Below, one piece after another: positions 825 through 64,000 of a DNA stretch of 64,000 nucleotides. The DNA is from Escherichia coli. Lineage in GTDB: Bacteria; Pseudomonadota; Gammaproteobacteria; Enterobacterales; Enterobacteriaceae. The stretch lies in assembly GCF_024502345.1 (NCBI RefSeq), contig NZ_JALDNN010000001.1. One strand, 5' to 3'. The notes beneath the pieces are model-generated. The model had not been told where the DNA came from, searched no databases, and saw only the letters and a list, made by a program, of their open reading frames with translations. Every line of letters starts with the position of its first letter. Within the stretch, counting starts at the first letter, position 1. The position numbers and the translations under genes are program-made.

Positions 825-1287
825 CGTTTTACTCTGTGTTGGCAATAGCATGATGGGTGATGATGGCGCAGGCCCGCTGCTGGCGGAAAAGTGCGCCGCC
901 GCGCCGAAAGGCAACTGGGTGGTGATTGACGGCGGTAGTGCACCGGAAAACGACATCGTCGCCATCCGTGAACTGCGCCCTACGCGGTTACTGATTGTTG
1001 ACGCTACTGATATGGGGCTAAACCCCGGCGAAATCCGCATCATCGACCCGGATGATATCGCCGAGATGTTTATGATGACTACCCATAACATGCCGTTGAA
1101 CTACCTTATCGATCAGTTGAAAGAAGATATTGGCGAAGTGATTTTCCTCGGCATCCAGCCGGATATCGTCGGCTTTTACTACCCGATGACCCAGCCGATT
1201 AAAGATGCGGTTGAAACCGTTTATCAACGTCTGGAAGGCTGGGAAGGGAACGGCGGTTTCGCGCAGTTAGCGGTGGAAGAAGAGTAG
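817..1287 (+). CDS. hycI: Hydrogenase 3 maturation endopeptidase HycI
   Basis: 156-aa ORF recognised as HycI; operon context. Confidence 0.85.
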   Translation: MTDVLLCVGNSMMGDDGAGPLLAEKCAAAPKGNWVVIDGGSAPENDIVAIRELRPTRLLIVDATDMGLNPGEIRIIDPDDIAEMFMMTTHNMPLNYLIDQLKEDIGEVIFLGIQPDIVGFYYPMTQPIKDAVETVYQRLEGWEGNGGFAQLAVEEE

Positions 1288-1329
1288 TTTTTCAGTAAGG
1301 AATCAGGACAGGGATGTTCTTGATGAGGG

Positions 1330-1556
1330 AATCAGAACTGATAGCAAACGCCAGATTGCCCGATGCGCTGCGCTTATCGGGCCTACCTGGTTCGTGCGAC
1401 ACTAGGCCCGATAAGGCATTCATCACGCCGCATCCGGCGCGGTTACTAACTGATGCCAAACGCCAAATTGCCCGATACGCTACGCTTATCGGGCCTACCT
1501 GGTTCGTGCGACATGTAGGCCGGATAAGGCGTTCACGCCGCATCCGGCATGGTTAC
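1330..1556. repeat. REP/BIME palindromic element cluster
   Basis: Repeated GCC(G/T)GATGCGGCGTGAACGCCTTATCCGGCCTAC-type palindromes between convergent hycI and ascB. Confidence 0.7.
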
Positions 1557-4447
<2,891 letters not shown>

Positions 4448-4703
4448 CGGATTTTATCCTGTTATCAGTAGGGTAGATGTAGTTGTTATCAGTCGACGTG
4501 ACGGAAAAATGCCGATGCTGAAACGGAATTAAGAAACCGGTTTCACAAAATCATGAATAGTTGTCACCAAATAAGCAAGAGAGTTAATTGTTCATTTTTT
4601 ATATTTGTGAAACCGGTCACCTGAATATTTTTCCCGCCAATTGCGCAAGGACAATCGGTAAACGGTGCAGTACACTGCGTTGATTGCGTGTAAAGGGATG
4701 AAA

Positions 4704-5717
4704 ATGATGACGACGATGCTGGAAGTGGCGAAGCGCGCCGGGGTTTCAAAAGCGACCGTTTCCCGCGTGCTTTCAGGTAATGGCTACGTCAGCCAGGAGA
4801 CTAAAGATCGCGTGTTTCAGGCGGTAGAAGAGAGCGGTTACCGTCCAAACTTGCTGGCGCGCAATCTGTCGGCGAAGAGTACTCAGACGCTGGGGCTGGT
4901 AGTGACCAACACGCTTTACCACGGCATTTATTTTAGTGAATTACTCTTTCATGCCGCGCGAATGGCGGAAGAGAAAGGGCGGCAGTTGCTATTGGCAGAT
5001 GGTAAACACAGCGCCGAAGAAGAGCGCCAGGCGATTCAGTATCTGCTGGATTTGCGCTGCGACGCCATTATGATTTACCCGCGTTTTTTAAGCGTGGATG
5101 AGATCGATGACATTATTGACGCGCACAGTCAGCCGATAATGGTGCTTAATCGCCGCCTGCGCAAAAATAGCAGCCATAGCGTCTGGTGCGATCATAAACA
5201 GACCAGCTTTAATGCCGTGGCAGAGTTGATAAACGCCGGGCATCAGGAGATTGCTTTCCTTACCGGCTCGATGGATTCCCCCACCAGCATTGAACGTCTT
5301 GCCGGGTATAAAGACGCGCTGGCGCAGCATGGTATTGCGCTCAATGAAAAACTTATCGCTAACGGTAAATGGACGCCTGCCAGCGGGGCCGAAGGGGTAG
5401 AAATGTTGCTCGAACGTGGGGCTAAATTTAGCGCGTTAGTTGCCAGTAACGACGATATGGCGATAGGTGCGATGAAAGCGTTACACGAGCGCGGCGTAGC
5501 GGTGCCAGAGCAGGTGTCAGTTATCGGATTCGATGATATCGCAATTGCCCCCTATATCGTTCCGGCGCTCTCCAGCGTAAAAATTCCGGTGACTGAGATG
5601 ATTCAGGAAATTATTGGACGGCTGATTTTTATGCTCGATGGCGGGGATTTCTCACCGCCGAAAACCTTCAGCGGAAAACTGATCTGCCGCGACTCACTCA
5701 TTGCTCTTTCGCGATAA
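4704..5717 (+). CDS. ascG: LacI-family repressor AscG
   Basis: ORF 4665-5717; N-terminal HTH (MLEVAKRAGVSKATVSRVL); start ambiguous between Met codons at 4704 and 4707. Confidence 0.8.
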   Translation: MMTTMLEVAKRAGVSKATVSRVLSGNGYVSQETKDRVFQAVEESGYRPNLLARNLSAKSTQTLGLVVTNTLYHGIYFSELLFHAARMAEEKGRQLLLADGKHSAEEERQAIQYLLDLRCDAIMIYPRFLSVDEIDDIIDAHSQPIMVLNRRLRKNSSHSVWCDHKQTSFNAVAELINAGHQEIAFLTGSMDSPTSIERLAGYKDALAQHGIALNEKLIANGKWTPASGAEGVEMLLERGAKFSALVASNDDMAIGAMKALHERGVAVPEQVSVIGFDDIAIAPYIVPALSSVKIPVTEMIQEIIGRLIFMLDGGDFSPPKTFSGKLICRDSLIALSR

Positions 5718-5730
5718 ACATTGTCATCAC

Positions 5731-5766
5731 ATGTCATCGTCACTAGTGTCGATGACATCTTTTTTC
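5731..5766 (+). terminator. Rho-independent terminator downstream of ascG
   Basis: 28-bp near-perfect palindrome ATGTCATCGTCACTAGTGTCGATGACAT followed by a T-run. Confidence 0.6.
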
Positions 5767-5865
5767 CTGCATTACAGAAATTAATTTCCTTAAATAACAG
5801 CAAATTAAAAACTGGCATGATTTGTGAATGTATCGGCGCATTAACTGTCATTGCTGGAGAATTTG

Positions 5866-6393
5866 ATGAACCGTTTCATCATTGCTGACGCGAGTAAATG
5901 TATTGGTTGCCGTACCTGTGAAGTGGCGTGCGTGGTTTCTCATCAGGAAAATCAGGACTGTGCATCGCTGACCCCGGAAACATTTTTACCGCGTATCCAT
6001 GTCATTAAAGGTGTGAACATTTCCACGGCGACAGTTTGCCGTCAGTGTGAAGATGCACCGTGCGCTAACGTCTGCCCGAATGGTGCTATCAGCCGTGATA
6101 AAGGGTTTGTTCATGTGATGCAGGAACGTTGCATTGGTTGCAAAACCTGCGTTGTGGCTTGCCCGTATGGCGCGATGGAAGTGGTGGTACGTCCGGTGAT
6201 TCGCAACAGCGGCGCGGGGCTGAATGTACGGGCTGACAAAGCCGAAGCCAATAAATGCGACCTGTGCAACCATCGTGAAGACGGCCCGGCGTGTATGGCG
6301 GCTTGCCCGACCCATGCGCTAATTTGTGTCGATCGCAATAAACTTGAACAACTGAGCGCAGAAAAACGCCGCCGTACGGCGCTGATGTTCTAA
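5866..6393 (+). CDS. hydN: Fe-S electron-transport protein HydN
   Basis: ORF 5851-6393 with multiple CxxCxxCxxxCP ferredoxin motifs; start set at [12 protein letters not shown]. Confidence 0.85.
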
Positions 6394-6545: not shown

Positions 6546-8798
6546 ATGGCAAAAAACACATCTTGCGGTGTCCAACTGCGTATTCGTGGCAAAGTGCAGG
6601 GCGTCGGTTTTCGTCCGTTTGTCTGGCAGCTGGCACAGCAATTAAATCTTCACGGCGATGTCTGTAATGACGGCGATGGCGTAGAAGTCCGGCTGCGGGA
6701 AGACCCGGAAACGTTTCTTGTTCAATTGCATCAGCACTGCCCGCCGCTGGCGCGTATTGATAGCGTCGAGCGTGAGCCGTACATCTGGTCACAACTGCCC
6801 ACTGAGTTCACCATCCGCCAGAGCGCGGGAGGTGCCATGAATACGCAAATTGTTCCCGATGCCGCTACTTGCCCTGCTTGCCTTGCCGAAATGAATACCC
6901 CAGGCGAGCGGCGTTATCGTTATCCGTTTATCAACTGTACCCACTGCGGCCCGCGTTTCACCATTATTCGCGCCATGCCTTACGACCGCCCGTTTACCGT
7001 AATGGCGGCGTTTCCGCTGTGTCCAGCCTGTGATAAAGAGTACCGCGACCCGCTCGATCGTCGCTTCCACGCCCAGCCGGTGGCCTGCCCGGAGTGTGGC
7101 CCACATCTTGAATGGGTAAGTCATGGTGAACATGCGGAACAAGAGGCGGCATTACAGGCGGCTATCGCACAGTTAAAAATGGGCAACATTGTCGCCATCA
7201 AAGGGATTGGCGGATTTCATCTTGCCTGCGATGCACGTAACAGTAACGCGGTGGCGACACTTCGGGCGCGCAAACATCGCCCGGCGAAACCGCTGGCGGT
7301 CATGTTGCCAGTGGCTGACGGTTTACCAGACGCTGCGCGCCAGTTGCTTACCACGCCCGCTGCGCCGATTGTGCTGGTGGATAAAAAATACGTACCTGAG
7401 CTTTGTGATGATATCGCCCCTGGCCTTAACGAAGTCGGAGTGATGTTGCCTGCGAACCCGCTCCAGCATTTGCTGTTACAGGAACTGCAATGCCCTCTGG
7501 TGATGACCTCCGGCAACCTGAGCGGTAAACCACCGGCTATCAGCAACGAACAGGCGCTGGCGGATTTGCAGGGCATTGCCGACGGATTCTTGATACATAA
7601 CCGCGACATCGTGCAGCGGATGGATGATTCGGTGGTGCGCGAAAGCGGCGAAATGCTGCGCCGTTCGCGGGGGTATGTGCCGGATGCGCTGGCTTTGCCT
7701 CCGGGCTTTAAAAATGTTCCGCCTGTGCTGTGTCTCGGCGCGGATCTGAAAAATACCTTCTGCCTGGTGCGCGGTGAACAAGCGGTGTTGAGCCAGCATC
7801 TGGGCGATTTAAGTGACGATGGCATCCAGATGCAGTGGCGCGAAGCGTTACGCCTGATGCAAAACATCTACGATTTCACCCCGCAATACGTTGTGCATGA
7901 CGCGCATCCGGGCTATGTCTCCAGCCAGTGGGCGCGCGAAATGAATCTGCCGACACAAACGGTGCTTCATCATCATGCTCATGCGGCGGCGTGTCTGGCA
8001 GAGCATCAGTGGCCGCTGGATGGCGGTGATGTCATTGCGTTGACGCTCGACGGTATCGGTATGGGGGAGAACGGCGCTTTGTGGGGCGGCGAGTGCCTGC
8101 GGGTGAACTATCGCGAATGCCAGCACCTGGGCGGCTTGCCTGCAGTGGCGCTTCCGGGTGGCGATTTGGCGGCGAAGCAGCCGTGGCGAAACCTGCTGGC
8201 GCAGTGCCTGCGCTTTGTGCCGGAGTGGCAGAATTACTCTGAAACGGCAAGTGTGCAACAGCAAAACTGGAGCGTGCTGGCGCGGGCTATTGAGCGTGGA
8301 ATTAACGCGCCGCTGGCGTCATCGTGTGGGCGTTTGTTCGATGCTGTGGCGGCGGGACTGGGCTGTGCGCCAGCCACGTTAAGTTATGAAGGTGAAGCGG
8401 CTTGTGCTCTGGAGGCGCTCGCAGCCTCATGTGACGGAGTGACGCATCCGGTGACGATACCGCTGGTGGACAATCAACTGGATCTCGCCACTTTCTGGCA
8501 GCAGTGGCTGAACTGGCAGGCTTCGGTTAATCAACGCGCGTGGGCGTTTCATGATGCGCTGGCGCAGGGTTTTGCCGCGTTGATGCGTGAGCAGGCCACG
8601 ATGCGTGGTATCACTACGCTGGTATTTAGCGGCGGGGTTATTCATAACCGTTTGCTGCGTGCACGTCTGGCGCATTATCTCGCTGATTTCACATTGCTCT
8701 TTCCACAGAGTTTACCGGCGGGTGATGGCGGTTTGTCTTTGGGGCAGGGGGTTATTGCTGCGGCGCGTTGGTTAGCGGGTGAAGTCCAGAACGGATAA
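6546..8798 (+). CDS. hypF: Carbamoyltransferase HypF (hydrogenase maturation)
   Basis: ORF 6474-8798; start set at [24 protein letters not shown] (acylphosphatase domain), then Zn-finger CxxC pairs; 750 aa. Confidence 0.85.
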
Positions 8799-8819
8799 AA
8801 CGTGTTGCATCTGAACACC

Positions 8820-9120
8820 ATTATTGCCGGATGCGGCATAAACGCCTTATCCGGCCTACACATGCGTCCCCGTAGGTCGGATAAGACGCGCCAGCGTCGC
8901 ATCCGACATTTTGGGCACAGTAGCTGTATGTGACATGAACGCATTATGTGACCAACACATGCGCTCCCCGTAGGTCGGATAAGACGCGTCAGCGTCGCAT
9001 CCGACATTTTGGGCACAGTAGCTGTATGTGACATGAACGCATTATGTGACCAACACATGCGCTCCCCCGTAGGTCGGATAAGACGCGCCAGCGTCGCATC
9101 CGACATTTTAGGCACAGTAG
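8820..9120. repeat. REP-containing tandem repeat array (about 98-bp unit, about 3 copies)
   Basis: The unit GTAGGTCGGATAAGACGCG...CGCATCCGACATTTTGGGCACAGTAGCTGTATGTGACATGAACGCATTATGTGACCAACACATGCGCTCCCC recurs starting at 8872, 8970 and 9069. Confidence 0.8.
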
Positions 9121-9125
9121 CCCAC

Positions 9126-10259
9126 CTACACCGTCAACATTTTCAACAATCCAAATGCCTCTTTCATCCGATCCTCACTGACCACAAAGGCGCGAAGCTG
9201 GTCAGCATCGTCAACGCCGCGCGCCACCATTCCCTGGCGTTCGGTATTAATTTGCCAGCGTAAATCCTGACGCTGGGTTTCGCCTGCCAGATGCAGCGGT
9301 AATTCCGGCGTTTTGATTTTCACCAGCATCGCCGGGAGTTTCAGTGGCGTGTTATTGCCGAGAAGATTTTTTGCCAGCACCATCGCGCTAAGTTGAATCG
9401 GCTGGAGGAACGGCAATACCTGACCGTTAATTTCCGCGCAATCGCCCAGCGCGTAAATATCGGTATTACTGGTTTGCAGATAACTATCGACGCAAACGCT
9501 GCGATTAATCGTCAGCCCGGCGCGTCGTGCCAGGGCGGTTTCCGGGCGCAGTCCGGTGGCGGCAATTACCGCATCCACTTCGATGCTACGCTGGCGGTCC
9601 AGCGTTGCCAGAATGCCAGAATCCGTTTTTTCCAGCCCCTGTAACTGAGATTTCAACAGCAGATGAACGCCCATCTCCGTCAACCGATGCTGCAAGCGGC
9701 TGCTTACTTCCGGTGGCATTAACGACGCCAGAATACTGGCAGCGTTGTCGATTAGCGTGACCGCTTTGCCTGCACGACAAAAATCCATCGCCAGTTCGCT
9801 ACCAATCAAACCACCGCCAACAATCAACACGCGTCGGGCATCCCGCAGTTGCGTTTCACAGGCGCGATACTCTTGCTGACTATTTAACGTCAGCATTAAC
9901 TCACGCCCAGGCACAGGCGGGACAAAGGCACTGGCACCGGTTGCCAGTACTAGCTTGTCGTATTGCCACTGATTATTCTGGCTTTTCACCACACGGGCTT
10001 CGGCATCGATATCCGTCACCCAGGTTTGTGGAAACAGGTGCAGATTAAACTGCTCGGCAAATTCACCCGCCGTCTGGCGGGTAAGGTCATCGGCACGTTG
10101 CCCCTGACTGATAACATGGCTGAGGTCAGGTTTGTTGTACTCATCCATGCTGTCGGCGGCAATCAGGGTTAATGGAATAGTGGCGTCCTGTTTGCGAATA
10201 TTTTTCACCAGTTGGCGGGCGGCGAAGCCCGAACCGATGATCACAATGCCGTTACTCAT
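9126..10259 (-). CDS. norW: NADH:flavorubredoxin reductase NorW
   Basis: 377-aa FAD/NAD(P)-binding ORF (GSGFAA Rossmann motif), overlapping the norV stop. Confidence 0.9.
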
Positions 10260-11695
10260 TTTGCCTCCGATGCCAGTTCGTCAAAGACGTCTTTGCCGAG
10301 GGAGCATTCCGGGCAGAGGAAGTTATCCGGGACTTCACTCCACGGCGTTCCTGGCGCAACGTCCTGCATTGGCTCGCCTTTTGCCGGATCGTAAATCCAC
10401 TGGCAGACGCTGCACTGCATTCGTGGGCCGAGGTCAGCCGTCGTCGTGGCAGAGGTTTCTTCTTTAACTACCGTATTCACCGTGCTCTGCGGCAGCGGCG
10501 CGAGCGCCCACTGACGGGCGATTTCGCGACCGTGTTCACGGCATAACTCCAGAGCGTCCTGGTCTGGTCGCCATTTGGCTTTCAGGCTGAGCGACATTTC
10601 GAAACCCGCATCCTGCAGGCGCGTGGAAAGGCGATCCACCGCACCGCCGCTCCAGCCGTGAGAGCCGAAAGCACTGGCGCGTTTGTTACGGAAGCGTAAT
10701 CCGGTCATCTCCTCCACCAGCCCGGCGATTTTCGGCATCATCACGTTATTCATCGTCGAAGTGCCGACCAGCACGCCTTTTGAGCGGAAGACATTGGTCA
10801 GGATTTCGTTTTTATCGCTTCGGGCGACGTTGAAAATTTTCACCGCCACGCGTGGGTCGGTTTCCGCAATCCCCTGGGCGATAGCGTCAGCCATCATGCG
10901 GGTGTTATTCGACATGGTGTCGTAGAAAATGGTGATTCTGTCTTCCTGATAATCAGCGGCCCACTTCAGGTACAGCTCGACAATTTGCGTCGGGTTATCG
11001 CGCCAGACCACGCCGTGGGAGGTCGCTATCATATCGACTGGTAAGTTAAAGCCCAGGATCTCGGTAATTTTCGGCGTTACCAGGCGGCTGAACGGCGTCA
11101 GGATATTGGCGTAGTAACGCTGGCACTGCTCGAAAAGCTCCGTCTGATCCACTTCATCGTTGAACAGATGCTCGTCGCAGTAGTGCTGACCGAAAGCATC
11201 GTTACTGAACAGCACCGCGTCGCCTGTCAGGTAAGTCATCATGCTGTCCGGCCAGTGCAGCATTGGCGTTTCGACAAAAATGAGCTGTTTGCCGTTGCCG
11301 ATATCCAGCGTGTCACCAGTTTTCACCACATTAAAATTCCACTCCGGATGATGGTGATGACCATTTATCGAGTCGATAGCGTTGGCAGTACAGTAAATCG
11401 GCGTATCGGGAATTTGCGCCATCAGTTCGGTCAGCGCCCCAGCGTGGTCCTCTTCTGCATGGTTAATCACGATGTAATCGATATCCGCCAGATCGATTTC
11501 ATTACGCAGGTTCTGCACAAATTCGCGGCTGAATTTATGGTCGACGGTGTCGATCAGCACGTTTTTTTCTTCGCGGATGAGGTAGCTGTTGTAACTGCTG
11601 CCGCGCAGCGTTTTATATTCCGTACCGTGAAAATCACGCACTTCCCAGTCACGTTGACCAACCCAATGAATGTTATTTTTCACCACAATAGACAT
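10256..11695 (-). CDS. norV: Anaerobic nitric oxide reductase flavorubredoxin NorV
   Basis: 479-aa ORF with metallo-beta-lactamase-like, flavodoxin and C-terminal rubredoxin (CxxC...CPxC) regions. Confidence 0.9.
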
Positions 11696-11740
11696 AGCAA
11701 CCTCAATTTATTCAGCGTGTTCTAAAAAGATGTCTTGCTA

Positions 11741-11758
11741 ATTGCAGATTACGTGCCA
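11741..11758 (-). promoter_or_regulatory. sigma54 (-24/-12) promoter of norVW
   Basis: Reverse complement reads TGGCAC-GTAAT-CTGCA, matching the TGGCAC-N5-TTGCA consensus about 45 bp upstream of the norV start. Confidence 0.75.
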
Positions 11759-11813
11759 GTTTTTTATCTGATTGTTTTTACTCTATAAATAAAATTATGC
11801 TCATTAATGAGTA

Positions 11814-11869
11814 GTCAAAATGACTATCAATCAAATGGTCGATATGACAATATCTATAGTCAAATTGAC
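11814..11869. promoter_or_regulatory. Three NorR enhancer-binding sites (GT-N7-AC)
   Basis: GTCAAAATGAC (11814-11824), GTCGATATGAC (11838-11848), GTCAAATTGAC (11859-11869) in the norR-norV divergent region. Confidence 0.75.
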
Positions 11870-11881
11870 AGTGAGGCAAAG

Positions 11882-13396
11882 ATGAGTTTTTCCGTTGATG
11901 TGCTGGCGAATATCGCCATCGAATTGCAGCGTGGGATTGGTCATCAGGATCGTTTTCAGCGCCTGATCACCACGCTACGTCAGGTGCTGGAGTGCGATGC
12001 GTCTGCGTTGCTACGTTACGATTCGCGGCAGTTTATTCCGCTTGCCATCGACGGTCTGGCAAAGGATGTACTCGGTAGACGCTTTGCGCTGGAAGGGCAT
12101 CCACGGCTGGAAGCGATTGCCCGCGCCGGGGATGTGGTGCGCTTTCCCGCAGACAGCGAATTGCCCGATCCCTATGACGGTTTGATTCCTGGGCAGGAGA
12201 GTCTGAAGGTTCACGCCTGCGTTGGTCTGCCATTGTTTGCCGGGCAAAACCTGATCGGCGCACTGACGCTCGACGGGATGCAGCCCGATCAGTTCGATGT
12301 TTTCAGCGACGAAGAGCTACGGCTGATTGCTGCGCTGGCGGCGGGAGCGTTAAGCAATGCGTTGCTGATTGAACAACTGGAAAGCCAGAATATGATGCCA
12401 GGCGATGCCACGCCGTTTGAAGCGGTGAAACAGACGCAGATGATTGGCTTGTCCCCTGGCATGACGCAACTGAAAAAAGAGATTGAGATTGTGGCGGCGT
12501 CCGATCTCAACGTCCTGATCAGCGGTGAGACGGGAACCGGTAAGGAGCTGGTGGCGAAAGCGATTCATGAAGCCTCGCCACGGGCGGTGAATCCGCTGGT
12601 CTATCTCAACTGTGCCGCACTGCCGGAAAGTGTGGCGGAAAGTGAGTTGTTCGGGCATGTGAAAGGAGCGTTTACTGGCGCTATCAGTAACCGCAGCGGG
12701 AAGTTTGAAATGGCGGATAACGGCACTCTGTTTCTGGATGAGATCGGCGAGTTGTCGTTGGCATTGCAGGCCAAGCTGCTGAGGGTGTTGCAGTATGGCG
12801 ATATTCAGCGCGTTGGCGATGACCGTAGTTTGCGGGTCGATGTGCGCGTGCTGGCGGCGACTAACCGCGACTTACGCGAAGAGGTGCTGGCAGGGCGATT
12901 TCGCGCTGACTTGTTTCATCGCCTGAGCGTGTTTCCACTTTCGGTGCCGCCGCTGCGTGAGCGGGGCGATGATGTCATTCTGCTGGCGGGGTATTTCTGC
13001 GAGCAGTGTCGTTTGCGGCTGGGGCTCTCCCGCGTGGTATTAAGTGCCGGAGCGCGAAATTTACTGCAACACTATCGTTTTCCGGGGAACGTGCGCGAAC
13101 TGGAACATGCTATTCATCGGGCGGTAGTGCTGGCGAGAGCCACCCGCAACGGCGATGAAGTGATTCTTGAGGCGCAACATTTTGCTTTTCCTGAGGTGAC
13201 GTTGCCGCCGCCAGAAGCGGCGGCGGTGCCCGTTGTTAAGCAAAACCTGCGTGAAGCGACAGAAGCGTTCCAGCGTGAAACCATTCGCCAGGCACTGGCA
13301 CAAAATCATCACAACTGGGCTGCCTGCGCGCGGATGCTGGAAACCGACGTCGCCAACCTGCATCGGCTGGCGAAACGTCTGGGATTGAAGGATTAA
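11882..13396 (+). CDS. norR: NO-responsive sigma54 activator NorR
   Basis: ORF 11807-13396; AAA+ sigma54-interaction motifs ([14 protein letters not shown]-like); start set at [12 protein letters not shown] so the NorR sites lie upstream; 504 aa. Confidence 0.85.
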
Positions 13397-14358
13397 ATAA
13401 TCCCGGCCTGATAGAAATCCTGCAGGTTAATTGCGCCGGTGAGTTTGCCGTTTTCATCCACCACCGGTGCGGCAGTGATTTTGCGCTTCATCAGGATCTC
13501 TTTGGCGTCGATGGCGCGACTTTGCGCCTGTAACGTGGTGCCGCCTGTCGTCATCGCTTCATTAACTGGCGTGGTGAGTGCCCCGCCGCCTACCAGCCAG
13601 CGACGTAAATCGCCGTCGGTAAAGACGCCTTGTACCTGTTGTTGAGCGTCACATACCGCCACCAGCCCCAGACCGGTGCGGCTGAGTTCCAGCATCGCAT
13701 CCATCACGCTGGCGGTTAACGCCACCTGTGGGATGGCATCGTCACGGCGCATCAGATGATGCACTTTATTCAGCAAGCGAGCGCCCAGTGCCCCGGCTGG
13801 GTGGGAGCGGGCAAAATCTTCTTCATTAAATCCGCGCGCCTGCATGACCGCCATCGCCAGCGCGTCACCCATCATCAGGGTATTGACGGTGCTGGAGGTC
13901 GGCGCAAGGTGCATCGGGCAGGCTTCGCGTTCTACGGAGATATCCAGCACCGCTTTTGCCGCCAGGCCCAGCGGTGACGTCGGTTTGCCGGTCATCGCCA
14001 GCAGCGCGATAGATTTATCTTCCAGACGCGGAATAATCAGATCCAGTTCCTTCGCGCCACCGGAGTAAGAGATAAACAGCATCACATCGCGGCTTTCAAT
14101 CATCCCCAGATCGCCGTGCAGTGCTTCTGCCGGATGGACAAAAAAAGCCGGTGTGCCGGTACTGGCAAGTGTTGCGGCGATTTTCTTACCAATGTGGCCC
14201 GATTTGCCAATTCCCGAAACCACCACTTTGCCTTCGCAGTGCAGGATGATATTGGCGGCGCGAACAAAATCATCGCCCAGACGTTCCGGTAAACGGCTTG
14301 CTTCCTGCAACTCCAGCATTAACGTCTGACGTCCCGCGTTCAGTAGTGCTTCACTCAT
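13393..14358 (-). CDS. gutQ: Arabinose-5-phosphate isomerase GutQ (SIS + CBS)
   Basis: 321-aa ORF recognised as GutQ; last gene of the sorbitol operon. Confidence 0.85.
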
Positions 14359-15124
14359 TGCTCTCTCCGGTTATGATCACATCGATCCCTTTCTCTTCCA
14401 GCGCCTGACGAAACGCCGGATCGATACCTGCGTCGGTAATCAGCTTATCGACGCTTTCAAGACTGCAAACTACGTTGGGGCTTTTACGGCCAAACTTTGA
14501 TGAGTCCGCCATCAAAATCACTTCGCGCGCGGCATTGCACATTGCCTTACTGACGGTATAAACCTCGTTGAAGGTGGTTACGCCCGCATTGAGATCGATG
14601 CCGTCGGTGCCCATAAACAATTTATCGAAACTGAAATGTTCGAAGGCATTCTCTGCCAGCTGTCCGTGAAATGAGGCCGATTTTTTACGAAACGTTCCGC
14701 CTGGCATCAGGATAGTTTGTTCGTTATCCAGTTCGGATAGCGCATTGACGATATGCAGGCTGTTGGTCATCACCGTGATGTTATTAAAGCGCGAGAGCAG
14801 GGGAACCATCTGCAAAACGGTACTGCCAGCATCAAGAATGATCGAATCGCCATCATGGATAAAACTAACGGCAGCTTCTGCAATCAGCTCTTTCTTGTGG
14901 GTGTTGATGAGTGTTTTATGATCGATAGGCGGATCGGATTCCTCTTTATTCAACACCACTCCGCCATAAGTACGAATGACGGTTCCGGCATGTTCCAGAA
15001 TGACCAGATCTTTGCGAATGGTTGTGCCTGTGGTGTCAAAGTATTGCGCCAATTCTTCAACCGAGCATTTACCCTGCTTTTGCAGATACTCCAGAATGGC
15101 GGCCTGACGCTGACGAGGTTTCAT
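14351..15124 (-). CDS. srlR: DeoR-family sorbitol operon repressor SrlR
   Basis: 257-aa ORF with N-terminal HTH; gut operon context. Confidence 0.85.
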
Positions 15125-15190
15125 GGGCGTGATTACCTGATTTAGGTTTCAAAATGATAACTTCGCAAGCAAGTAACATTCACAACGAAA

Positions 15191-15550
15191 TTATCCACGT
15201 TTCAGTTTAAGCGCCAATGATAGAGCATTCTGTGATAGTGGATCATGGGGAAAGATCACATCGGGCTGTAAATCACCCGCATGCATACCGGTAATTGCGG
15301 GAATTTTTTGCGGTCGGGCGAAGACGGTCAGTCCTTTCATAAACAAGGTGTCGACGATGCGCTGCTGATCGTCCAGCGCGATGGCGACCACGACCCGCGG
15401 TTTAAAGCGCCCGCTGGAACGGCCCACGCCAACCCGCCCTTGCTGGCATAGTGTGTCGAAGGCACGGTTAAAACGAGAAATTTGCCAGCCGCCTAAGGCC
15501 AGTTGCGCACACCAGGCGATAACGGCGACGGTGATGAGTGCGGATACCAT
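15191..15550 (-). CDS. gutM: Sorbitol operon activator GutM
   Basis: 119-aa ORF between srlD and srlR. Confidence 0.8.
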   Translation of the reverse strand: MVSALITVAVIAWCAQLALGGWQISRFNRAFDTLCQQGRVGVGRSSGRFKPRVVVAIALDDQQRIVDTLFMKGLTVFARPQKIPAITGMHAGDLQPDVIFPHDPLSQNALSLALKLKRG

Positions 15551-15654
15551 AACTTTTCCTTAATGTAGTGGCGGAAGTCCTGTATGCCTGATGAGCGTAG
15601 CGCATCAGGCATTCTATAGTCTCACGGAGATCCTTAATGGATCTCCGCTGTTGA

Positions 15655-16809
<1,155 letters not shown>

Positions 16810-56009: not shown

Positions 56010-57101
<1,092 letters not shown>

Positions 57102-57323
57102 CTATTGTGATCAAAAACAACAAATTAGTAACATTTAACGTAGGGTATTAAGGCAAAGTGAGACAGGAAATGAATAACTAAAGCAACAGGTTAGGGGGGA
57201 ATTACCATCAGAGAACAGATTATCTGGTCGATAAAAAACGGTAAATGGCTTCACTGCAAAATGACCGTCAGTAAACTAAACATATTATCTGCCCCGTTTT
57301 AGCGGGGCAGATATAACATTAAA

Positions 57324-59012
57324 TTACAAATAGAGATAGTTCAGCGGTTCTCCTGTTTTCCCTAAAAGAAGAGCGCTACGCCCAGGAATATTGATATTTA
57401 GAGTTCCGCCTCTAAGCATAAATGCTTTACCAGGGGGGATAATTTTTCGGGTATTATTAATAATAATGTTAACGCTATTACTCCCCATGTTTTTATATTT
57501 TCCAGGTTGCAATTTGTTAGGCCAGGCACCTTCAACTTCTTCGTTTCCTTTATTTATTATAACTAGTCCATCATGAGGAGAGTGATTAATGTTCACCGAA
57601 TCCCCACGACTAAAGGCCAGAACGTTTTTAGTTGCAAATACACCCTCAAATGCGCTCCATATTCCTGCTTTATCTATATATAATGCGTGGAATTCATTGT
57701 AGAGCTGCTGATAGGTAGAGCAACCTTTATTAAGCCACGCCTCACCGCCGACACGCGTCGACCCATCATAATTTTTAATTTCAGTCGTTGATTTTAATAC
57801 TTGGCCATCCCAGTAAACTAAAGGCCTGCTGAACGGGAGAGCGGCCATATATGCCATTGCTAATTGTTCATCTTGTTGATGGTTAAATAGAAAGTCATTG
57901 AAAAGATTGCCATTGTTAGGAAAAACGTGGTTAATGTTAATCAATATCCGTCTTTTTGATGGGATGCTTGAGATTGTTGAACCCGGTTTTGATGCAAGGG
58001 TTTGGAGATCGCCACCAAATGAAAAAGCTTTTATCGTCTTCATGAGCAATGAAAAATCAATGGCGCTTAAATCATCTCTTTCATAAAGCAGCGATGACAT
58101 TTGTTGTTCATCCAACTGACAAGTTACCAGATATTCCATGTAATTCATAACGGCTTTTTCATGATATTTTGGGTTAAATAAGTTAGTATTGTGTAATCGC
58201 TCATTATAATTTTTAAGCGGTGGGGTTATTGATCTTTCTATTTGTTCATGTTTTGAGTGTTTTGCCGCATCATAACGTAAACCTCGTACGCCATATTTTC
58301 GCATTTCACGAACGTATTGATTTTGCAGCATAATAACCTGGTCACTTTTGGGGGTTGTTTTAGGCATTCCATTTAAACGCTTTTCTTTTAATGCATGGAG
58401 GTTTTCCCATTCATCCTTAGAAATATTATCTTTACTTGCTTCGAAGTCTTTTGCAGTGAGATGTATATCTTCTGGATGGATTTGTTTACGTTCTTTTGTT
58501 ACTGGATCTATAGTAAATGGAATCAAAACCTGACCTTGCCAATAGCCAGGGATACCACCTTCTATATCTTTACTGATCTTCGCTCGTATATCAGCAGAGG
58601 GATAATCCAGGTCATTTTTACCACTACCCCCGATTCCCATAAAGTTAAAGGTATAATCAGGAATGATATCGATACCAAATTTTTTAGCATCTTTAACCAA
58701 TGCGATAAAATCCTGCAAATCTCCCATTGGATTATGGATGGTACAAAGATCTTCGGGTTGATAAGCGTGAAACCAGTAACCTTTTTCTTCTTCGGGAGTT
58801 TCTGGTCCGTCGGCGCGGAAAGTTGTCACTGGAGGGATTTGTATATACCCATAATGGCAACGTGCAAACTCAGACATATTTTCCCTGATTTGCTGGTAGG
58901 TGGCATTAAAAGCATGAAGAATCGCTTCGCCAGGTTTTTTGGGGGTGATGATTTCACATTGTGATTTCTGAACAGCAGTAAGGGATTTACGCTCAAGTGT
59001 TTGCCGTAGATG
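57324..59012 (-). pseudogene. ygaQ: GH13 (alpha-amylase-like) protein YgaQ, 5-prime-truncated by IS3
   Basis: 517-aa ORF with alpha-amylase region II-like motif GLRYDAAKH; the frame stays open upstream of the first Met as far as the IS3 end at 59013; AT-rich. Confidence 0.7.
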
Positions 59013-59077
59013 TGATCTTACCCAGCAATAGTGGACACGCGGCTAAGTGAGTAAACTCTCAGTCAGAGGTGACTCAC

Positions 59078-59377
59078 ATGACAAAAACAGTATCAACCAG
59101 TAAAAAACCCCGTAAACAGCATTCGCCTGAATTTCGCAGTGAAGCCCTGAAGCTTGCTGAACGCATCGGTGTTACTGCCGCAGCCCGTGAACTCAGCCTG
59201 TATGAATCACAGCTCTACAACTGGCGCAGTAAACAGCAAAATCAGCAGACGTCTTCTGAACGTGAACTGGAGATGTCTACCGAGATTGCACGTCTCAAAC
59301 GCCAGCTGGCAGAACGGGATGAAGAGCTGGCTATCCTCCAAAAGGCCGCGACATACTTCGCGAAGCGCCTGAAATGA
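59078..59377 (+). CDS. insE: IS3 OrfA (InsE)
   Basis: [50 protein letters not shown]... Confidence 0.9.
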
Positions 59378-60240
59378 AGTATGTCTTTATTGAAAAACAT
59401 CAGGCTGAGTTCAGCATCAAAGCAATGTGCCGCGTGCTCCGGGTGGCCCGCAGCGGCTGGTATACGTGGTGTCAGCGGCGGACAAGGATAAGCACGCGTC
59501 AGCAGTTCCGCCAACACTGCGACAGCGTTGTCCTCGCGGCTTTTACCCGGTCAAAACAGCGTTACGGTGCCCCACGCCTGACGGATGAACTGCGTGCTCA
59601 GGGTTACCCCTTTAACGTAAAAACCGTGGCGGCAAGCCTGCGCCGTCAGGGACTGAGGGCAAAGGCCTCCCGGAAGTTCAGCCCGGTCAGCTACCGCGCA
59701 CACGGCCTGCCTGTGTCAGAAAATCTGTTGGAGCAGGATTTTTACGCCAGTGGCCCGAACCAGAAGTGGGCAGGAGACATCACGTACTTACGTACAGATG
59801 AAGGCTGGCTGTATCTGGCAGTGGTCATTGACCTGTGGTCACGTGCCGTTATTGGCTGGTCAATGTCGCCACGCATGACGGCGCAACTGGCCTGCGATGC
59901 CCTGCAGATGGCGCTGTGGCGGCGTAAGAGGCCCCGGAACGTTATCGTTCACACGGACCGTGGAGGCCAGTACTGTTCAGCAGATTATCAGGCGCAACTG
60001 AAGCGGCATAATCTGCGTGGAAGTATGAGCGCAAAAGGTTGCTGCTACGATAATGCCTGCGTGGAAAGCTTCTTTCATTCGCTGAAAGTGGAATGTATCC
60101 ATGGAGAACACTTTATCAGCCGGGAAATAATGCGGGCAACGGTGTTTAATTATATCGAATGTGATTACAATCGGTGGCGGCGGCACAGTTGGTGTGGCGG
60201 CCTCAGTCCGGAACAATTTGAAAACCAGAACCTCGCTTAG
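59374..60240 (+). CDS. insF: IS3 OrfB transposase (InsF; DDE)
   Basis: 288-aa ORF overlapping insE in the -1 frame. Confidence 0.9.
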
Positions 60241-60324
60241 GCCTGTGTCCATATTACGTGGGTAGGATCATAATGCTTTGGTTGCTGGCGTATCTGACAG
60301 CTTCTTCGGCGTGAAGGTCGTTGT

Positions 60325-61381
60325 GGCTTTGTTGAATAAATCAGATTTCGGGTAAGTCTCCCCCGTAGCGGGTTGTGTTTTCAGGCAATACGCACGCTTT
60401 CAGGCATACCTGCTTTCGTCATTTTGTTCAGCGCTCGTACCAGGGCCATAGCCTCTGCAACCTGACCATCGTAGTCACGCAGTGTCAGTGAACCCCCGAA
60501 CAGCTGTTTTACCCGGTACATCGCCGTTTCCGCTATCGAGCGACGGTTGTAATCTGTTGTCCATTTCCACCGCGCATTACTCCCGGTCATTCGCTGATTA
60601 GCCACTGCACGGTTACGGTCTGCATATTCACCGGGCCAGTAACCCGCACCTTTTCGGGGAGGGATAAGCGCGCTGATTTTCTTACGCCGCAGTTCATCGT
60701 GACATAGCCGGGTATCGTAAGCGCCATCGGCGGCGGCTGACCTGATTTTCCGGTGGGTTTGCCGGATTAACCCGGGGAAGGCCTCTGAGTCCGTAACGTT
60801 GTTCAGCGACAGGTCAGCGCAGATGATTTCATGTGTTTTACTGTCAACGGCGAGATGCAGCTTACGCCAGATACGGCGGCGTTCCTGGCCATGCTTTTTG
60901 ACTTTCCACTCGCCTTCACCGAAGACCTTCAGCCCGGTGGAATCAATTACCAGGTGTGCGATTTCACCCCGGGTGGGCGTTTTGAAACTGACATTAACCG
61001 ACTTTGCCCGCCTGCTGACACAGCTGTAATCCGGGCAGCGTAGCGGAACGTTCATCAGAGAAAAAATGGAATCAATAAAGCCCTGCGCAGCGCGCAGGGT
61101 CAGCCTGAATACGCGTTTAATGACCAGCACAGTCGTGATGGCAAGGTCAGAATAGCGCTGAGGTCTGCCTCGTGAAGAAGGTGTTGCTGACTCATACCAG
61201 GCCTGAATAGCTTCATCATCCAGCCAGAAAGTTATGGAGCCACGGTTGATGAGGGCTTTATTGTAGGTGGGCCAGTTGGTGATTTTGAACTTTTGCTTTG
61301 CCACGGAACGGTCTGCGTTGTCGGGAAGATACGTGATCTGATCCTTCAACTCAGCAAAAGTTCGATTTATTCAACAAAGCC
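60325..61381 (-). mobile_element. IS903-group (IS5 family) insertion sequence, copy 1 (1057 bp)
   Basis: Terminal inverted repeats GGCTTTGTTGAATAAATC at 60325-60342 and 61364-61381; internal 322-aa transposase ORF. Confidence 0.85.
60381..61349 (-). CDS. IS903-group transposase
   Basis: 322-aa ORF ending ...LVRALNKMTKAGMPESVRIA, recognised as IS903/IS102-type Tnp. Confidence 0.85.
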   Translation of the reverse strand: MKDQITYLPDNADRSVAKQKFKITNWPTYNKALINRGSITFWLDDEAIQAWYESATPSSRGRPQRYSDLAITTVLVIKRVFRLTLRAAQGFIDSIFSLMNVPLRCPDYSCVSRRAKSVNVSFKTPTRGEIAHLVIDSTGLKVFGEGEWKVKKHGQERRRIWRKLHLAVDSKTHEIICADLSLNNVTDSEAFPGLIRQTHRKIRSAAADGAYDTRLCHDELRRKKISALIPPRKGAGYWPGEYADRNRAVANQRMTGSNARWKWTTDYNRRSIAETAMYRVKQLFGGSLTLRDYDGQVAEAMALVRALNKMTKAGMPESVRIA

Positions 61382-61480
61382 TGTCCCCATTTGTAAATGG
61401 CTATGCTTAGTCCACATAGGTTAATGGTGTGATTATTAATTCTTTAACTAAATCAAGATAGTTAATGCATCATGGGAGAG

Positions 61481-61900
61481 TTATGCGGCAATAACTTTGC
61501 ATTTTTGAGACGAAACATAGTCACTCCACCATTGCATGAGAACCACCCGTTCAGTGAGATACTCTGCACGATTGTAGGCTGCAATTATTTCATCTTTCTT
61601 CGAGTGGGCAAGGGCGGCTTCTAAGACATCAGTCCTAAACTTGCCAGACTCCTCAGCAGCCGTTCTAGCAATGGATCGCATACCGTGAGCTACAAGCTCA
61701 CCTCCGAAACCCATACGGATTATGGCCGCATTAGCTGTTTGTTCATGCATGTGATTGAGTGGAGCTTTGATACTGGGGAACACCCACTCTCTATGCCCGC
61801 TGATGACTTTCATTAAATCCAAAACTCGCAAAGCTTCTTTGCTCAGTGGAACTTTGTGAGGCTTCTTCATTTTCATAAACTCCGCCGGGATGTTCCACAT
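61481..61900 (-). pseudogene. P4-type tyrosine integrase, C-terminal remnant A
   Basis: 139-aa ORF with catalytic-domain residues (...LVAHGMRSIARTAAEESG...EAALAHSKKDEIIAAYNRAEYLTERVVLMQWW); an in-frame stop two codons upstream of the Met shows N-terminal truncation. Confidence 0.7.
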
Positions 61901-62062
61901 GCCAGTTTCAATATCAATAGCCGCCTTTCGACGGTGTAGTGGGGAGAGTATTGCTTACAAACGTAATGAAATTGTTTGAGTAGCTAGGCTACTGCATAGG
62001 ATTATTTTGTTCTGTTAATATATCCGTTAATATAGATAGATTGATCCAATTGAGTTTAAGGA

Positions 62063-63772
62063 ATGAGTATGTTTCAGATATCAGCTGGAGTGTTCTTTGA
62101 TTTAGATAAAATAGAAAAACACGATGGCGCATTTGTTTTTTATTCAAATGTTGATGTGTCTTTCTCGGTGGAAAACACCTCCCCTCTTTTTAAAGCAAAT
62201 AAAATAAGTCATGATGGTATAAACTGTTATGTGGTAAACTATACTCTCCTGACCGAAAAACCAGAACGAATTGAAGCTGGAGTCGTAGTTAGGGCTGGTG
62301 ATGAGGATTATAGGCAACAATTTATTTTATTATGGGAATTCTATTTTGATTGTGTGGCTAGAGTAGAAAAAGAATCGGTTAAAAAAATATGTGCATTATC
62401 AAATTTTAATAAACATCACTCAAAAATTGCGCTTGAAGTTGCCCCATATTTAGTGGAGATTAACCGAAGAGTTTCATTTGATGATGTCTCTGGGTTTTCT
62501 GCTTTTATTAAAGATGTAGTGAATCTAAATAGATCTGCCTTTAAATCTTTAATGGCAGCGTTAAAAATAATTAGTGATTCAAAAGAATCATTGTCAACCA
62601 ACTTTGACCTGACTTATTCCATGTTAGTCTATGCCTTGGAGTCTTTGTCTCAAAGAAATGATAACTATAAGTCTGATTGGGATGACTACGATCAAAAAAC
62701 CAGAGGTGAATTAGAGTCTGTATTTGAGCATATGCCTGGTGAGGATGTTTGTAAAATTAAATCAATACTTATTGAAGGCAAACAATTCAGATTACAAAAA
62801 AGGTTCAAAGATTTTATACTGAAAAATCTTGAAGAAAATTATTTCAATGAAACAGAGAGATATCCAATCCGCTATAGCTTCCTTAGTAGAGCTTTAGATA
62901 ATTTATACAAAATCAGGTCTTCTTTTGTCCATGAGCTTAAGCCACTTGATGCAATGATCTCGAAAGCCTACAATCCTGTTGGTGATTGTCTGGTTCTTTT
63001 TGGCGAACCTCACTTCAGTTACTCTGGATTGCTTCGACTTCTTCGCCATGTGATAATAAATTTTTGCCGTAAAAACTACAGTCAAAAAAGAGAGTATGTT
63101 AATTGGGTGATGGAAACATCGGGTGTAATGGTTGCAGAGATATCTGCACAATATTGGCTCTGGAATGCAGACGGATTTACAGCTAAAAGTATAGCGAAGT
63201 GGTTTAGTGAATACCTAAATATGTTAAATTTAGGCGAAGTCACTGATTTGCAGTCTATCATGGACAAAATTGAGATAATCTATGACCAATCCAAAAAAGA
63301 ATATAAAAATGGGTTGTTGTATTTTTATTTCTTATATAACTTAATGCATAATGGAAATAAGGGTGAATGGCTTGAGTTTGCGAACAAGCGAAGTTCTATA
63401 CTTGTTTGTGATATATATTGGTATTCATGCTCTCCATATTTATATAAATCATTTACTAATGTTTCAAATGGTATTGCTGATATAAAAACATTGAGAAACT
63501 TTTTGTCTTGTTTTAACGAATATGATAAAAATAAATTTAAGCCAAATCGTTTAAATCTCCCTGCAATGACCGAAGTAATTATGTTGGCTTGCGCAGCAAA
63601 TTCATTCTTCAGAATTGGAATGTATCAAGACTATGTTTTAATGGGCAATAGAGCGATGAGAGAAATTGCTTCAGTAAAAGATGTATTTTATTATATAAAA
63701 GAACGATTAAGTAATTCACAACTTATTGAATTGGACGAGTGCTTGAGATTGTATAGAAAAAAAGGGGGCTAA
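62063..63772 (+). CDS. Hypothetical protein, 569 aa, AT-rich orphan
   Basis: Complete ORF; RBS AAGGA at 62058-62062 favours the second ATG at 62069; clearly A+T-rich relative to core genes; no family recognised; R-S-S-F-V-H at residues 285-290. Confidence 0.7.
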   Translation: MSMFQISAGVFFDLDKIEKHDGAFVFYSNVDVSFSVENTSPLFKANKISHDGINCYVVNYTLLTEKPERIEAGVVVRAGDEDYRQQFILLWEFYFDCVARVEKESVKKICALSNFNKHHSKIALEVAPYLVEINRRVSFDDVSGFSAFIKDVVNLNRSAFKSLMAALKIISDSKESLSTNFDLTYSMLVYALESLSQRNDNYKSDWDDYDQKTRGELESVFEHMPGEDVCKIKSILIEGKQFRLQKRFKDFILKNLEENYFNETERYPIRYSFLSRALDNLYKIRSSFVHELKPLDAMISKAYNPVGDCLVLFGEPHFSYSGLLRLLRHVIINFCRKNYSQKREYVNWVMETSGVMVAEISAQYWLWNADGFTAKSIAKWFSEYLNMLNLGEVTDLQSIMDKIEIIYDQSKKEYKNGLLYFYFLYNLMHNGNKGEWLEFANKRSSILVCDIYWYSCSPYLYKSFTNVSNGIADIKTLRNFLSCFNEYDKNKFKPNRLNLPAMTEVIMLACAANSFFRIGMYQDYVLMGNRAMREIASVKDVFYYIKERLSNSQLIELDECLRLYRKKGG

Positions 63773-63786
63773 CCCCTTTTATTTTT
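63757..63786. terminator. Bidirectional rho-independent terminator
   Basis: AAAAAAAGGGGG-CTAA-CCCCTTTTTATTTTT overlapping the convergent stop codons of the 569-aa ORF and integrase remnant B. Confidence 0.7.
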
Positions 63787-63932
63787 AACGTATTCTCCCC
63801 ACCAATCCATCAATTCAATTCGCTGCACGAGATAAGTAGAACGATTGTATGCTTTTCTAACTTCATTTTTATCACTGTGGGCTAAGGCAGACTCGATAAC
63901 ATCAGGATTTAATCCAGCTTCATTCATGGCTG
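63769..63932 (-). pseudogene. P4-type tyrosine integrase, C-terminal remnant B, truncated by IS903 copy 2
   Basis: Reverse-strand translation ...AMNEAGLNPDVIESALAHSDKNEVRKAYNRSTYLVQRIELMDWWGEYVKNKRG-stop; about 54 codons; related to but distinct from remnant A. Confidence 0.65.
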
Positions 63933-64000
63933 GGCTTTGTTGAATAAATCGAACTTTTGCTGAGTTGAAGGATCAGATCACGTATCTTCCCGACAACGCA
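63933..64000 (+). mobile_element. IS903-group insertion sequence, copy 2 (partial, runs off window), inverted relative to copy 1
   Basis: 63933-64000 is the exact reverse complement of 61314-61381 (the transposase-proximal end of copy 1). Confidence 0.85.

Follow-up and report, generated by a model that had tools for sequence, protein, structure and literature searches.

At the right end of the window (the whole stretch of Escherichia coli DNA that was analyzed, 64,000 nucleotides in length), two inverted copies of an IS903-group insertion sequence enclose a short segment carrying a 569-aa open reading frame (ORF). This layout raises the question of whether the three parts constitute a composite transposon comparable to Tn903, as proposed in the initial annotation, or came together at this place by separate events. 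The Tn903-like geometry, namely, two inverted IS903-group copies around 2551 bp, was confirmed. Comparisons with contigs that preserve the same locus in other states nevertheless indicate that the region is very probably an IS-eroded remnant of mobile islands stacked at ssrA, which originated in situ and did not arrive as a unit. The features on which this reading depends are collected in Table 1.

Table 1. Features at the right end of the window, numbered from its first letter
Feature	Position	Strand	Description
IS3	59013-60270	plus	1258 bp; orfA 59069-59377, orfB 59374-60240; context, outside the IS903 pair
Native spacer between IS3 and copy 1	60271-60324		54 bp; identical to L005 60-113
IS903B copy 1	60325-61381	minus	Complete, 1057 bp; perfect 18-bp terminal inverted repeats GGCTTTGTTGAATAAATC
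intA remnant (ssrA-island integrase)	61382-61919	minus	99 bp past the gene and its C-terminal part
AATA microhomology	61916-61919		4 bp; older deletion junction joining intA to the P4-like satellite's psu-int hotspot
569-aa ORF	62063-63772	plus	Intact; 567 aa from second ATG at 62069; 33% G+C
intB 3' remnant (P4-like satellite integrase)	63769-63932	minus	Last 52 codons and 5 bases; severed by copy 2
IS903B copy 2, first 68 bp	63933-64000	plus	Inverted relative to copy 1; remainder beyond the window

Copy 1 is complete and intact and shows the defining traits of IS903B, that is, a length of 1057 bp, 18-bp inverted repeats, and one 307-aa DDE transposase. Its minus-strand transposase ORF is uninterrupted; it covers 60381-61349, and reading from a GTG gives 60381-61304 and the 307-aa product. 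The ORF matches the NCBIfam IS5-family transposase model with an E value of 6e-107, and over its full 1057 bp the element has 100% identity with annotated IS903B copies from many E. coli genomes. The terminal repeat is matched 3 times in the window, against 0.01 matches expected by chance. Copy 2 is visible for 68 bp, its far end lying beyond the window; read in reverse complement, 63933-64000 equals 61314-61381 exactly (68 nt, 100%). Both the placement and minus-strand transposase of copy 1 and the exact inverted end at the window edge were thereby verified, and the starts of the two transposase genes border the 2551-bp segment at 61382-63932. IS903B is very common and active in E. coli: the exact 307-aa transposase is widespread (7,920 index blocks), and copies with at least 99% identity were found in 1059 records, with a maximum of 47 places per genome. 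As for the inner flanks, the 9 bases left of copy 2, TCATGGCTG (63924-63932), stand as first reported and are presumed to be its target site. The 9-mer originally given for the right side of copy 1, CTGTCCCCA, takes in the final base of the IS, and the correct one is TGTCCCCAT.

The DNA on both sides of copy 1 could be traced to identifiable neighbors. To its left, window positions 59013-60325 are 99.9% identical to positions 1127-2439 of contig L002, where they are annotated as an IS3 family transposase; the flanking triplets of this IS3 are unlike (ATG versus TAA), and its insertion has cut ygaQ to 517 aa, versus 750 aa in the intact form. The last 9 bases of the adjoining spacer (60316-60324) are GGTCGTTGT, the left half of the copy 1 target-site duplication. 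To the right of copy 1, the intA remnant is 100% identical to L002 6001-6538, in which the integrase is whole (410 aa) and adjoins ssrA; the minus-strand ORF left in the window (61481-61900, 139 aa) matches the NCBIfam PRK09692 integrase domain (E = 9e-48). A three-way comparison of the window with L002 and L001 placed the older junction at the AATA microhomology, over which the two alignments overlap. A further contig that appeared to share the intA break point (L011) was ruled out, since no part of intA is missing from its DNA. At the far end of the segment lies a second integrase remnant, little stressed in the initial annotation (minus-strand ORF 63769-63927, 52 aa; NCBIfam integrase domain, E = 3e-19), which is identical to L005 through position 6226, after which L005 continues into an intact 398-aa integrase, ssrA, and smpB. 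Two other contigs considered as an alternative neighbor of this 52-aa remnant (L024 and L025) merely encode a frameshifted integrase.

Evidence on the origin of the arrangement comes from contigs with neither, one, or both of the IS903B copies. Two draft E. coli genomes free of both (L004 and L005) match window positions 61382-63932 at 2551 of 2551 bases. In these contigs the locus continues leftward into genes for a recombinase and two ParB proteins, followed by the 54-bp spacer and IS3 end seen in the window, and rightward into the intact intB, with ssrA and smpB beyond. The enclosed DNA is thus not a foreign passenger but is collinear with an uninterrupted native locus. Copy 2 without copy 1 was seen in L021, L022/L006, and L023, all of which have an IS903 end at the identical intB site and also retain the recombinase-ParB-ParB genes and an unbroken copy 1 target site; the copy 2 junction, with up to 139 bp of the IS, is present in L021 to L023 and in L026 to L029. 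Both copies without a deletion are found in L007, a short-read contig from SRR32878073 that opens and closes with 28 nt of IS: the IS903 inner end comes first and is followed by GGTCGTTGT, by the equivalent of L005 positions 105-6226 at 99.98% identity, and then by an IS903 end at the intB site. Because of these 28-nt termini, L007 does not show the outer copy 1 junction of its sample on the same molecule; the 9-bp duplication of copy 1 is read from its left half in the window and its right half in L007. The left outer GGTCGTTGT therefore pairs with the inner side of copy 1, and, with the right outer border beyond the window, a 9-bp duplication around the whole unit was not found. The junction strings at which both duplications would be visible are ...GTGAAGGTCGTTGT/GGCTTTG, AAAGCC/GGTCGTTGTGTAAGT, and AAAGCC/TCATGGCTGTACTTGC. 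When the window is set against L005, window position 60324 corresponds to L005 113 and window position 61382 to L005 3676, which defines a deletion of 3561 bp that starts exactly at the inner end of copy 1 and removed the two ParB genes and the recombinase gene.

From these states we assembled a history in which sequence comparison shows steps 0, 1, and 2 as well as where the last step began and ended. The starting point (step 0) would have been a P4-like satellite lying between ssrA and a second ssrA island with intA, the recombinase, and two ParB genes. A deletion at 4 bp of microhomology would have run from the psu side of the satellite to the middle of intA, leaving intB and the psu-int hotspot gene fused to the 3' part of intA. 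Copy 2 would then have originated as an IS903B insertion into intB at TCATGGCTG (step 1), and copy 1 as a second IS903B, 6.1 kb away and in the opposite orientation, at GGTCGTTGT with its own 9-bp duplication (step 2). Finally, the 3561-bp deletion from the inner end of copy 1 would have taken away the inner half of the duplication along with the three genes, bringing copy 1 to its present distance of 2551 bp from copy 2 (step 3). The most likely cause of step 3 is an IS903 adjacent deletion through intramolecular transposition, an event that has been reported for this element (PMC12670165, PMC11708052); this enzymatic mechanism, like the order of steps 1 and 2, we infer. The co-occurrence of IS3 and copy 2 is uneven (L005 has only IS3, L021 only copy 2, and the window both), so that recombination between lineages or repeated events must have been involved, and a strictly linear order is unproven. 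Beyond position 64000, the in situ model predicts 989 further bases of IS903B, then TCATGGCTG and TACTTGCTATTGAACGTAATCC... (intB codons 346 to 1), and then ssrA or a further ssrA island. The missing duplication at the inner junction of copy 1 is explained by the deletion beside the IS, and with a native cargo, separate insertions, and a deletion, the Tn903-like shape becomes an accidental by-product.

Had IS903B, cargo, and IS903B instead arrived together as one 4.67-kb unit, a 9-bp duplication would be expected at the outer borders only. Such a composite would account for the two inverted IS903B ends around a short segment and for the lack of a duplication at either inner junction, and it has a precedent in the layout of Tn903, with two IS903 copies and a 980-bp passenger (PMC12670165). 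Against it, the cargo matches the native locus at 100% identity and in the same order and orientation, and in IS-free genomes that locus is continuous on both sides; the DNA outside copy 1 is what natively adjoins this locus on the left; in L007 the second GGTCGTTGT, matching the left outer 9-mer, is found just inside copy 1, contrary to the proposal that a duplication exists only outside the pair; and copy 2 occurs at its identical site in contigs lacking copy 1, which is the separate-insertion outcome that the initial annotation had named as counting against its own proposal. The unit is also missing from the plasmids and other chromosomal sites searched. We therefore regard arrival as a composite as extremely improbable. 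We judge it just as extremely unlikely that copy 1 was produced from copy 2 by the inversion type of intramolecular replicative transposition. Replicative transposition is possible for IS903 (PMC11708052), and the copies are inverted and identical across the comparable 68 bp, but such an event would have flipped the intervening segment, whose orientation to the left flank is in fact that of the IS-free locus, and would have split the target duplication between the copies in inverted form, whereas the direct repeat of GGTCGTTGT belongs to copy 1 only. An inversion between the two IS copies was likewise rejected, as it does not fit the flanks, and the cargo is unrearranged relative to the ancestral locus.

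A repeat-induced misjoin, with no second copy present, could be suspected given that copy 2 is seen as 68 bp at the very end of the window and that IS903B is a multicopy repeat. Yet the identical intB::IS903 junction, accompanied by as many as 139 bp of the IS, recurs in at least 8 independent contigs from various samples and assemblers, making an assembly artifact very improbable. The alternative closest to our reading keeps the same in situ history but holds that the 3561 bp were lost when copy 1 recombined homologously with a third IS903B, in direct orientation, at TGTCCCCAT (L005 3676-3684). This would have the same outcome, one IS with two nonmatching flanks; IS903B is a multicopy, frequent inserter in E. 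coli, and recombination between IS copies is a recognized cause of missing duplications (PMC11708052). However, no IS903B was found at the third site in the contigs or genomes searched, and the scenario needs one insertion event more than an adjacent deletion does; we consider it fairly unlikely. The adjacent deletion thus remains our preferred account of step 3.

The initial annotation had suggested that the unit be sought in other contexts. The cargo was found in 0 of 72,556 plasmids, and 0 of 5,426 complete E. coli genomes contained at least 80% of it or either inner junction; the cargo mosaic, the intB::IS903 junction, and the deletion junction were all absent from the complete E. coli genomes. 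All nine contigs that encode the exact 569-aa ORF have it in an ssrA or P4 context. A second genomic or plasmid context for IS903B-cargo-IS903B was accordingly not found among the plasmids, the complete E. coli genomes, and the exact-protein contigs. The left junction of copy 1 was not found in species-representative genomes, exact look-ups of the 517-aa ygaQ fragment or of GlaH did not return the window arrangement, and the deletion junction (IS end followed by TGTCCCCAT) was seen in the window only. An apparent IS903B within a "recombinase" (H72) proved to lie in an unrelated prophage invertase. The predicted reciprocal junction of copy 2 was recovered neither from the JGI metagenome contigs nor from the viral contigs, from both of which the lineage may be missing; the known copy 2 junction is likewise missing from the viral set, which leaves these negatives with little weight. 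No record was found, for either allele tried, of the truncated integrase of 350 aa that the 9-bp duplication predicts (ending ...IASTAMRLC).

Set beside known systems, the window resembles Tn903 (IS903-aphA1-IS903), Tn602, and TnaphA1-pIE545 in having two inverted 1057-bp IS903-group elements around a short passenger, whose length is 980 bp in Tn903 and 3312 bp in TnaphA1-pIE545 (PMC12670165). Unlike in Tn903, the enclosed DNA is native and has stayed where it was, a separate duplication accompanied copy 1, and there is no sign of past movement in the plasmids and other sites searched. At most, then, the arrangement is possibly a precursor of a composite transposon. It is more like a simple IS903B insertion with an adjacent deletion: one original flank is kept, the deletion runs exactly from the other IS end, the half of the duplication on that side is lost, and the intermediate with both halves is represented by L007. 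This pattern matches that of IS-associated deletions in general (PMC11708052) and of IS903 in particular (PMC12670165), and the deletion here is probably of enzymatic origin.

The 569-aa ORF, initially described as an orphan, is a hotspot gene of P4-like satellites known as "HEPN-TPR" and has already been catalogued and cloned. In strains ATCC 8739 and NS-NP030, intact P4-like satellites at ssrA carry it as the only gene separating psu from int, a position corresponding to the psu-int defense hotspot (PMC9122126); the window carries the same gene, with the satellite otherwise reduced to part of the integrase gene. Table S1A of Rousset et al. 2022 lists accessions of the hotspot gene, and the ATCC 8739 allele was cloned as pFR83 and entered as "HEPN-TPR" among the "additional tested systems" of Table S2B; it is not among the validated defense systems of Table S2A, the panel in that study consisting of eight phages (PMC9122126). 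The protein contains an R285-S286-x3-H290 motif, of which R285, S286, and H290 are invariant in 26 homologs with identities down to 18%, and R285 and H290 provide the R-x4-H signature of HEPN domains, shared with the ApeA-type HEPN abortive-infection proteins (Pfam HEPN_Apea, PF18739). The ORF has a weak match to the PADLOC Cas13-ApeA model (E = 7e-6), one homolog is named "Apea-like HEPN" in UniRef, and 3 of the 26 relatives match HEPN_Apea with E values between 0.001 and 0.1. The ORF itself has no Pfam match and no significant match to the HEPN_Apea profile or a HEPN fold; sequence searches of Pfam, NCBIfam, PHROGs, and PDB retrieved nothing significant, and the hits from fold searches were all generic, of helical-repeat or TPR-like type. 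The sole intact cargo gene is hence a candidate HEPN-type anti-phage gene from a P4 satellite hotspot, and annotation should record it as a P4-hotspot "HEPN-TPR" candidate defense gene.

The arrangement is an ordinary one and reflects the routine erosion by IS elements that the stacked ssrA islands of E. coli undergo. It cautions that an inverted IS pair with missing inner duplications is insufficient for calling a composite transposon, as an adjacent deletion leaves the same signature, and it offers a worked example in which the IS-free, one-IS, and predeletion two-IS states are all preserved in public contigs. The IS903B pair could in principle transpose as a unit. That the pile-up has in fact made a new transposition-competent IS903B composite of ~4.67 kb, with the candidate anti-phage HEPN-TPR gene as its sole intact passenger, we hold to be quite improbable. 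If true, the locus would be a snapshot of a defense gene leaving a decaying satellite as transposon cargo, in parallel to the pick-up of aphA1 from a Klebsiella chromosome by IS903-group elements.

The initial annotation placed two inverted IS903-group copies around the cargo segment, and this is real: copy 1 is complete, and the part of copy 2 within the window (68 bases; its outer end lies beyond 64000) is an exact reverse complement of the inner end of copy 1, such that the intervening DNA is bracketed with both transposase gene starts adjoining it. The inverted-repeat pattern GGCTTTGTTGAATAAATC occurs three times in the window versus 0.01 expected by chance, and the copy 1 transposase matches the NCBIfam IS5-family transposase model (E = 6e-107). 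Copy 1 shows 100% identity over all 1057 bases to elements annotated as IS903B across many E. coli genomes; 1059 records contain copies at ≥99% identity, with a maximum of 47 places in one genome. The 9-base right flank of copy 1, previously read as CTGTCCCCA, is correctly TGTCCCCAT.

Features of the IS903B-bracketed locus and its left neighborhood (window positions)
Feature	Position	Description	Comparison
glaH (csiD) region	56113-57239		only 95% identity to LR-64-1
ygaQ	57324-58877	cut by IS3 to 517 aa	750 aa in other genomes
IS3 with flanks	59010-60273	flanks ATG versus TAA, no 3-bp duplication	
IS3-plus-spacer segment	59013-60325		99.9% identity to LR-64-1
IS3 end and 54-bp spacer	60212-60324		same in L004 and L005
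GGTCGTTGT	60316-60324	immediately left of copy 1	
IS903B copy 1	60325-61381	complete, 1057 bp; perfect 18-bp terminal inverted repeats GGCTTTGTTGAATAAATC	
Copy 1 transposase ORF	60381-61349, or 307 aa from GTG at 61304	minus strand; intact, single ORF	
Cargo	61382-63932	2551 bp	2551/2551 bases in L004 and L005
Piece one	61382-61919	intA 3' end and 99 bases downstream of intA	100% identity to LR-64-1
Shared AATA	61916-61919	common to pieces one and two	
Piece two	61916-63932	569-aa gene and last 52 codons of intB	99.8-99.9% identity to P4-like satellite
Hairpin and T run	63755-63790	G+C rich, aaaaaagggggctaacccctttt-atttt	
IS903B copy 2	63933-64000	68 bases to window end	exact reverse complement of 61314-61381

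The cargo joins two pieces into a mosaic, and none of 5,426 complete E. coli genomes has both together. At the LR-64-1 locus matching piece one, the ssrA-island integrase gene intA is intact and adjoins ssrA, and a recombinase gene and two ParB-family genes come next; the P4-like satellite matching piece two sits at ssrA in ATCC 8739 and NS-NP030 and has one gene between psu and its integrase gene, intB. The 4-base overlap of the pieces is the mark that an illegitimate deletion leaves, here within tandemly arrayed ssrA islands. This fusion, present in 0 of the 5,426 complete RefSeq E. coli genomes, recurs in drafts and gut-type metagenome contigs (L004, L005, and L021 to L023) and hence marks a real lineage without a representative among finished genomes. 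The same 139-aa integrase C-terminal ORF as in the window is called in another public sequence (L011, GCA_027275425.1; 9982-10519), where intA DNA is full length (99.2% identity to the intact gene) and was presumably broken independently by a frameshift or stop codon.

Exact-protein look-ups gathered mosaic loci in several states. (i) In the IS903-free state, drafts L005 (GCA_001484085.1) and L004 (GCA_050022275.1) carry the entire cargo, preceded leftward by recombinase-ParB-ParB and then the spacer and IS3 end, and followed rightward by an intact 398-aa intB (and, in L005, ssrA and then smpB). (ii) In the copy-2-only state, metagenome contigs L021, L022/L006, and L023 show an IS903 end (≤139 bases of IS) at the identical intB position, and they keep recombinase-ParB-ParB with the copy 1 target site uninterrupted. 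(iii) In the two-copy, deletion-free state, contig L007 (SRR32878073) has the IS903 inner end as its first 28 nt, followed directly by GGTCGTTGT, continues as L005 positions 105-6226 at 99.98%, and closes with an IS903 end at the intB site; copy 1 is oriented there as it is in the window. With GGTCGTTGT left of copy 1 in the window and beside its inner end in L007, copy 1 is identified as a simple insertion that has a 9-bp direct duplication to itself, against the expectation of a duplication at the outer borders only. Relative to L007, the window has lost L005 positions 114-3675, beginning exactly at the copy 1 inner end. With this loss went the recombinase, both ParB genes, and the duplication's inner copy, which is why copy 1 lacks a duplication in the window.

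The arrangement consists of two IS903B elements that inserted independently and one deletion adjoining an IS, all within the decayed remains of stacked ssrA islands. Sequence comparison directly shows loci with no, one, and two IS903B copies, as well as where the deletion starts and ends; the simplest order would be copy 2, copy 1, and then the deletion. The earlier reading as a Tn903-like composite holds for the geometry only, and delivery of the cargo by the IS pair is ruled out by the identical mosaic in the IS903-free drafts. An inversion-type replicative event is likewise ruled out, both by collinearity of the segment with the ancestral locus and by the direct-repeat duplication flanking copy 1. 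Probably, IS903 itself transposed intramolecularly and in doing so produced an adjacent deletion, of a kind reported for this element (PMC12670165, citing Bernardi and Bernardi 1991; PMC11708052). Recombination with a third, since lost, directly oriented IS903B is possible and would leave an identical scar, but no third copy was found in the contigs and genomes searched.

IS3 and copy 2 are distributed inconsistently, in every combination (L005 has only IS3, L021 only copy 2, and the window both); within about 6 kb, lineages must have exchanged DNA by homologous recombination, or events must have been repeated. The right flank of IS3 is the far end of the ssrA island, and the IS3 site appears to be another deletion or rearrangement associated with an IS. 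The differing LR-64-1 identities of the glaH region and the IS3-plus-spacer segment, 2 kb apart, suggest a recombination boundary between them. In L004, similarity to L005 ends inside the ssrA 3' end, and a further island (7277-16084) encodes PycTM and a cyclase (Pycsar-like), DUF6387, AlpA, and two more integrases; ssrA thus gathers stacked islands carrying defence genes.

The 569-aa ORF had been regarded as an orphan gene; however, it is catalogued among P4-encoded loci (WP_000486482 and WP_088551761; Table S1A of Rousset et al. 2022, PMC9122126). There, the ATCC 8739 allele was cloned as pFR83, "HEPN-TPR," and the protein sequence, insert, and primer given for it agree with this locus; the entry belongs to Table S2B ("additional tested systems") rather than Table S2A, where the validated systems are given. 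The family has members of ~560-570 aa in Enterobacterales, Vibrio, Aeromonas, and other taxa, one of which is named "Apea-like HEPN domain-containing protein." All of 26 homologues, down to 18% identity, share an R-x4-H motif (R285, S286, H290) without change; R157, Y185, E193, S194, L195, W206, R247, and Y282 are invariant as well. PADLOC Cas13-ApeA matches weakly (E = 7e-6), a Pfam search of the protein gave no match, and HEPN_Apea matches 3 of the 26 relatives only at E = 0.024 or worse. The AlphaFold model is confident (mean pLDDT, 84), with a predicted N-terminal beta-sheet domain (residues 17-78) and a long C-terminal helical-repeat half (about 370-567); in fold comparison, its matches were all generic, of helical-repeat or TPR-like type. 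Our best guess is that the protein may act in abortive infection of the HEPN type. The gene has 33% G+C versus 51.5% for the window. The hairpin, seen by eye at its stop codon, also overlaps the integrase remnant, which is convergent with the gene, at the remnant's 3' end; the two probably share it as a bidirectional terminator.

None of 72,556 plasmids carries the cargo, neither the mosaic nor either inner junction occurs in a complete E. coli genome, and all nine contigs encoding the exact 569-aa ORF place it in an ssrA or P4 context; the proposed IS903-cargo-IS903 unit was recovered in no other setting among these. The IS903B insertions and adjacent deletion are ordinary, already-known biology. 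Two inverted IS903 copies act as a composite in Tn903, and the pair here could structurally do likewise; searches for the outer end of copy 2 did not recover it. The remaining new possibility, as yet unsupported, is that the pair may now function as a composite, with a candidate defence gene as its cargo.
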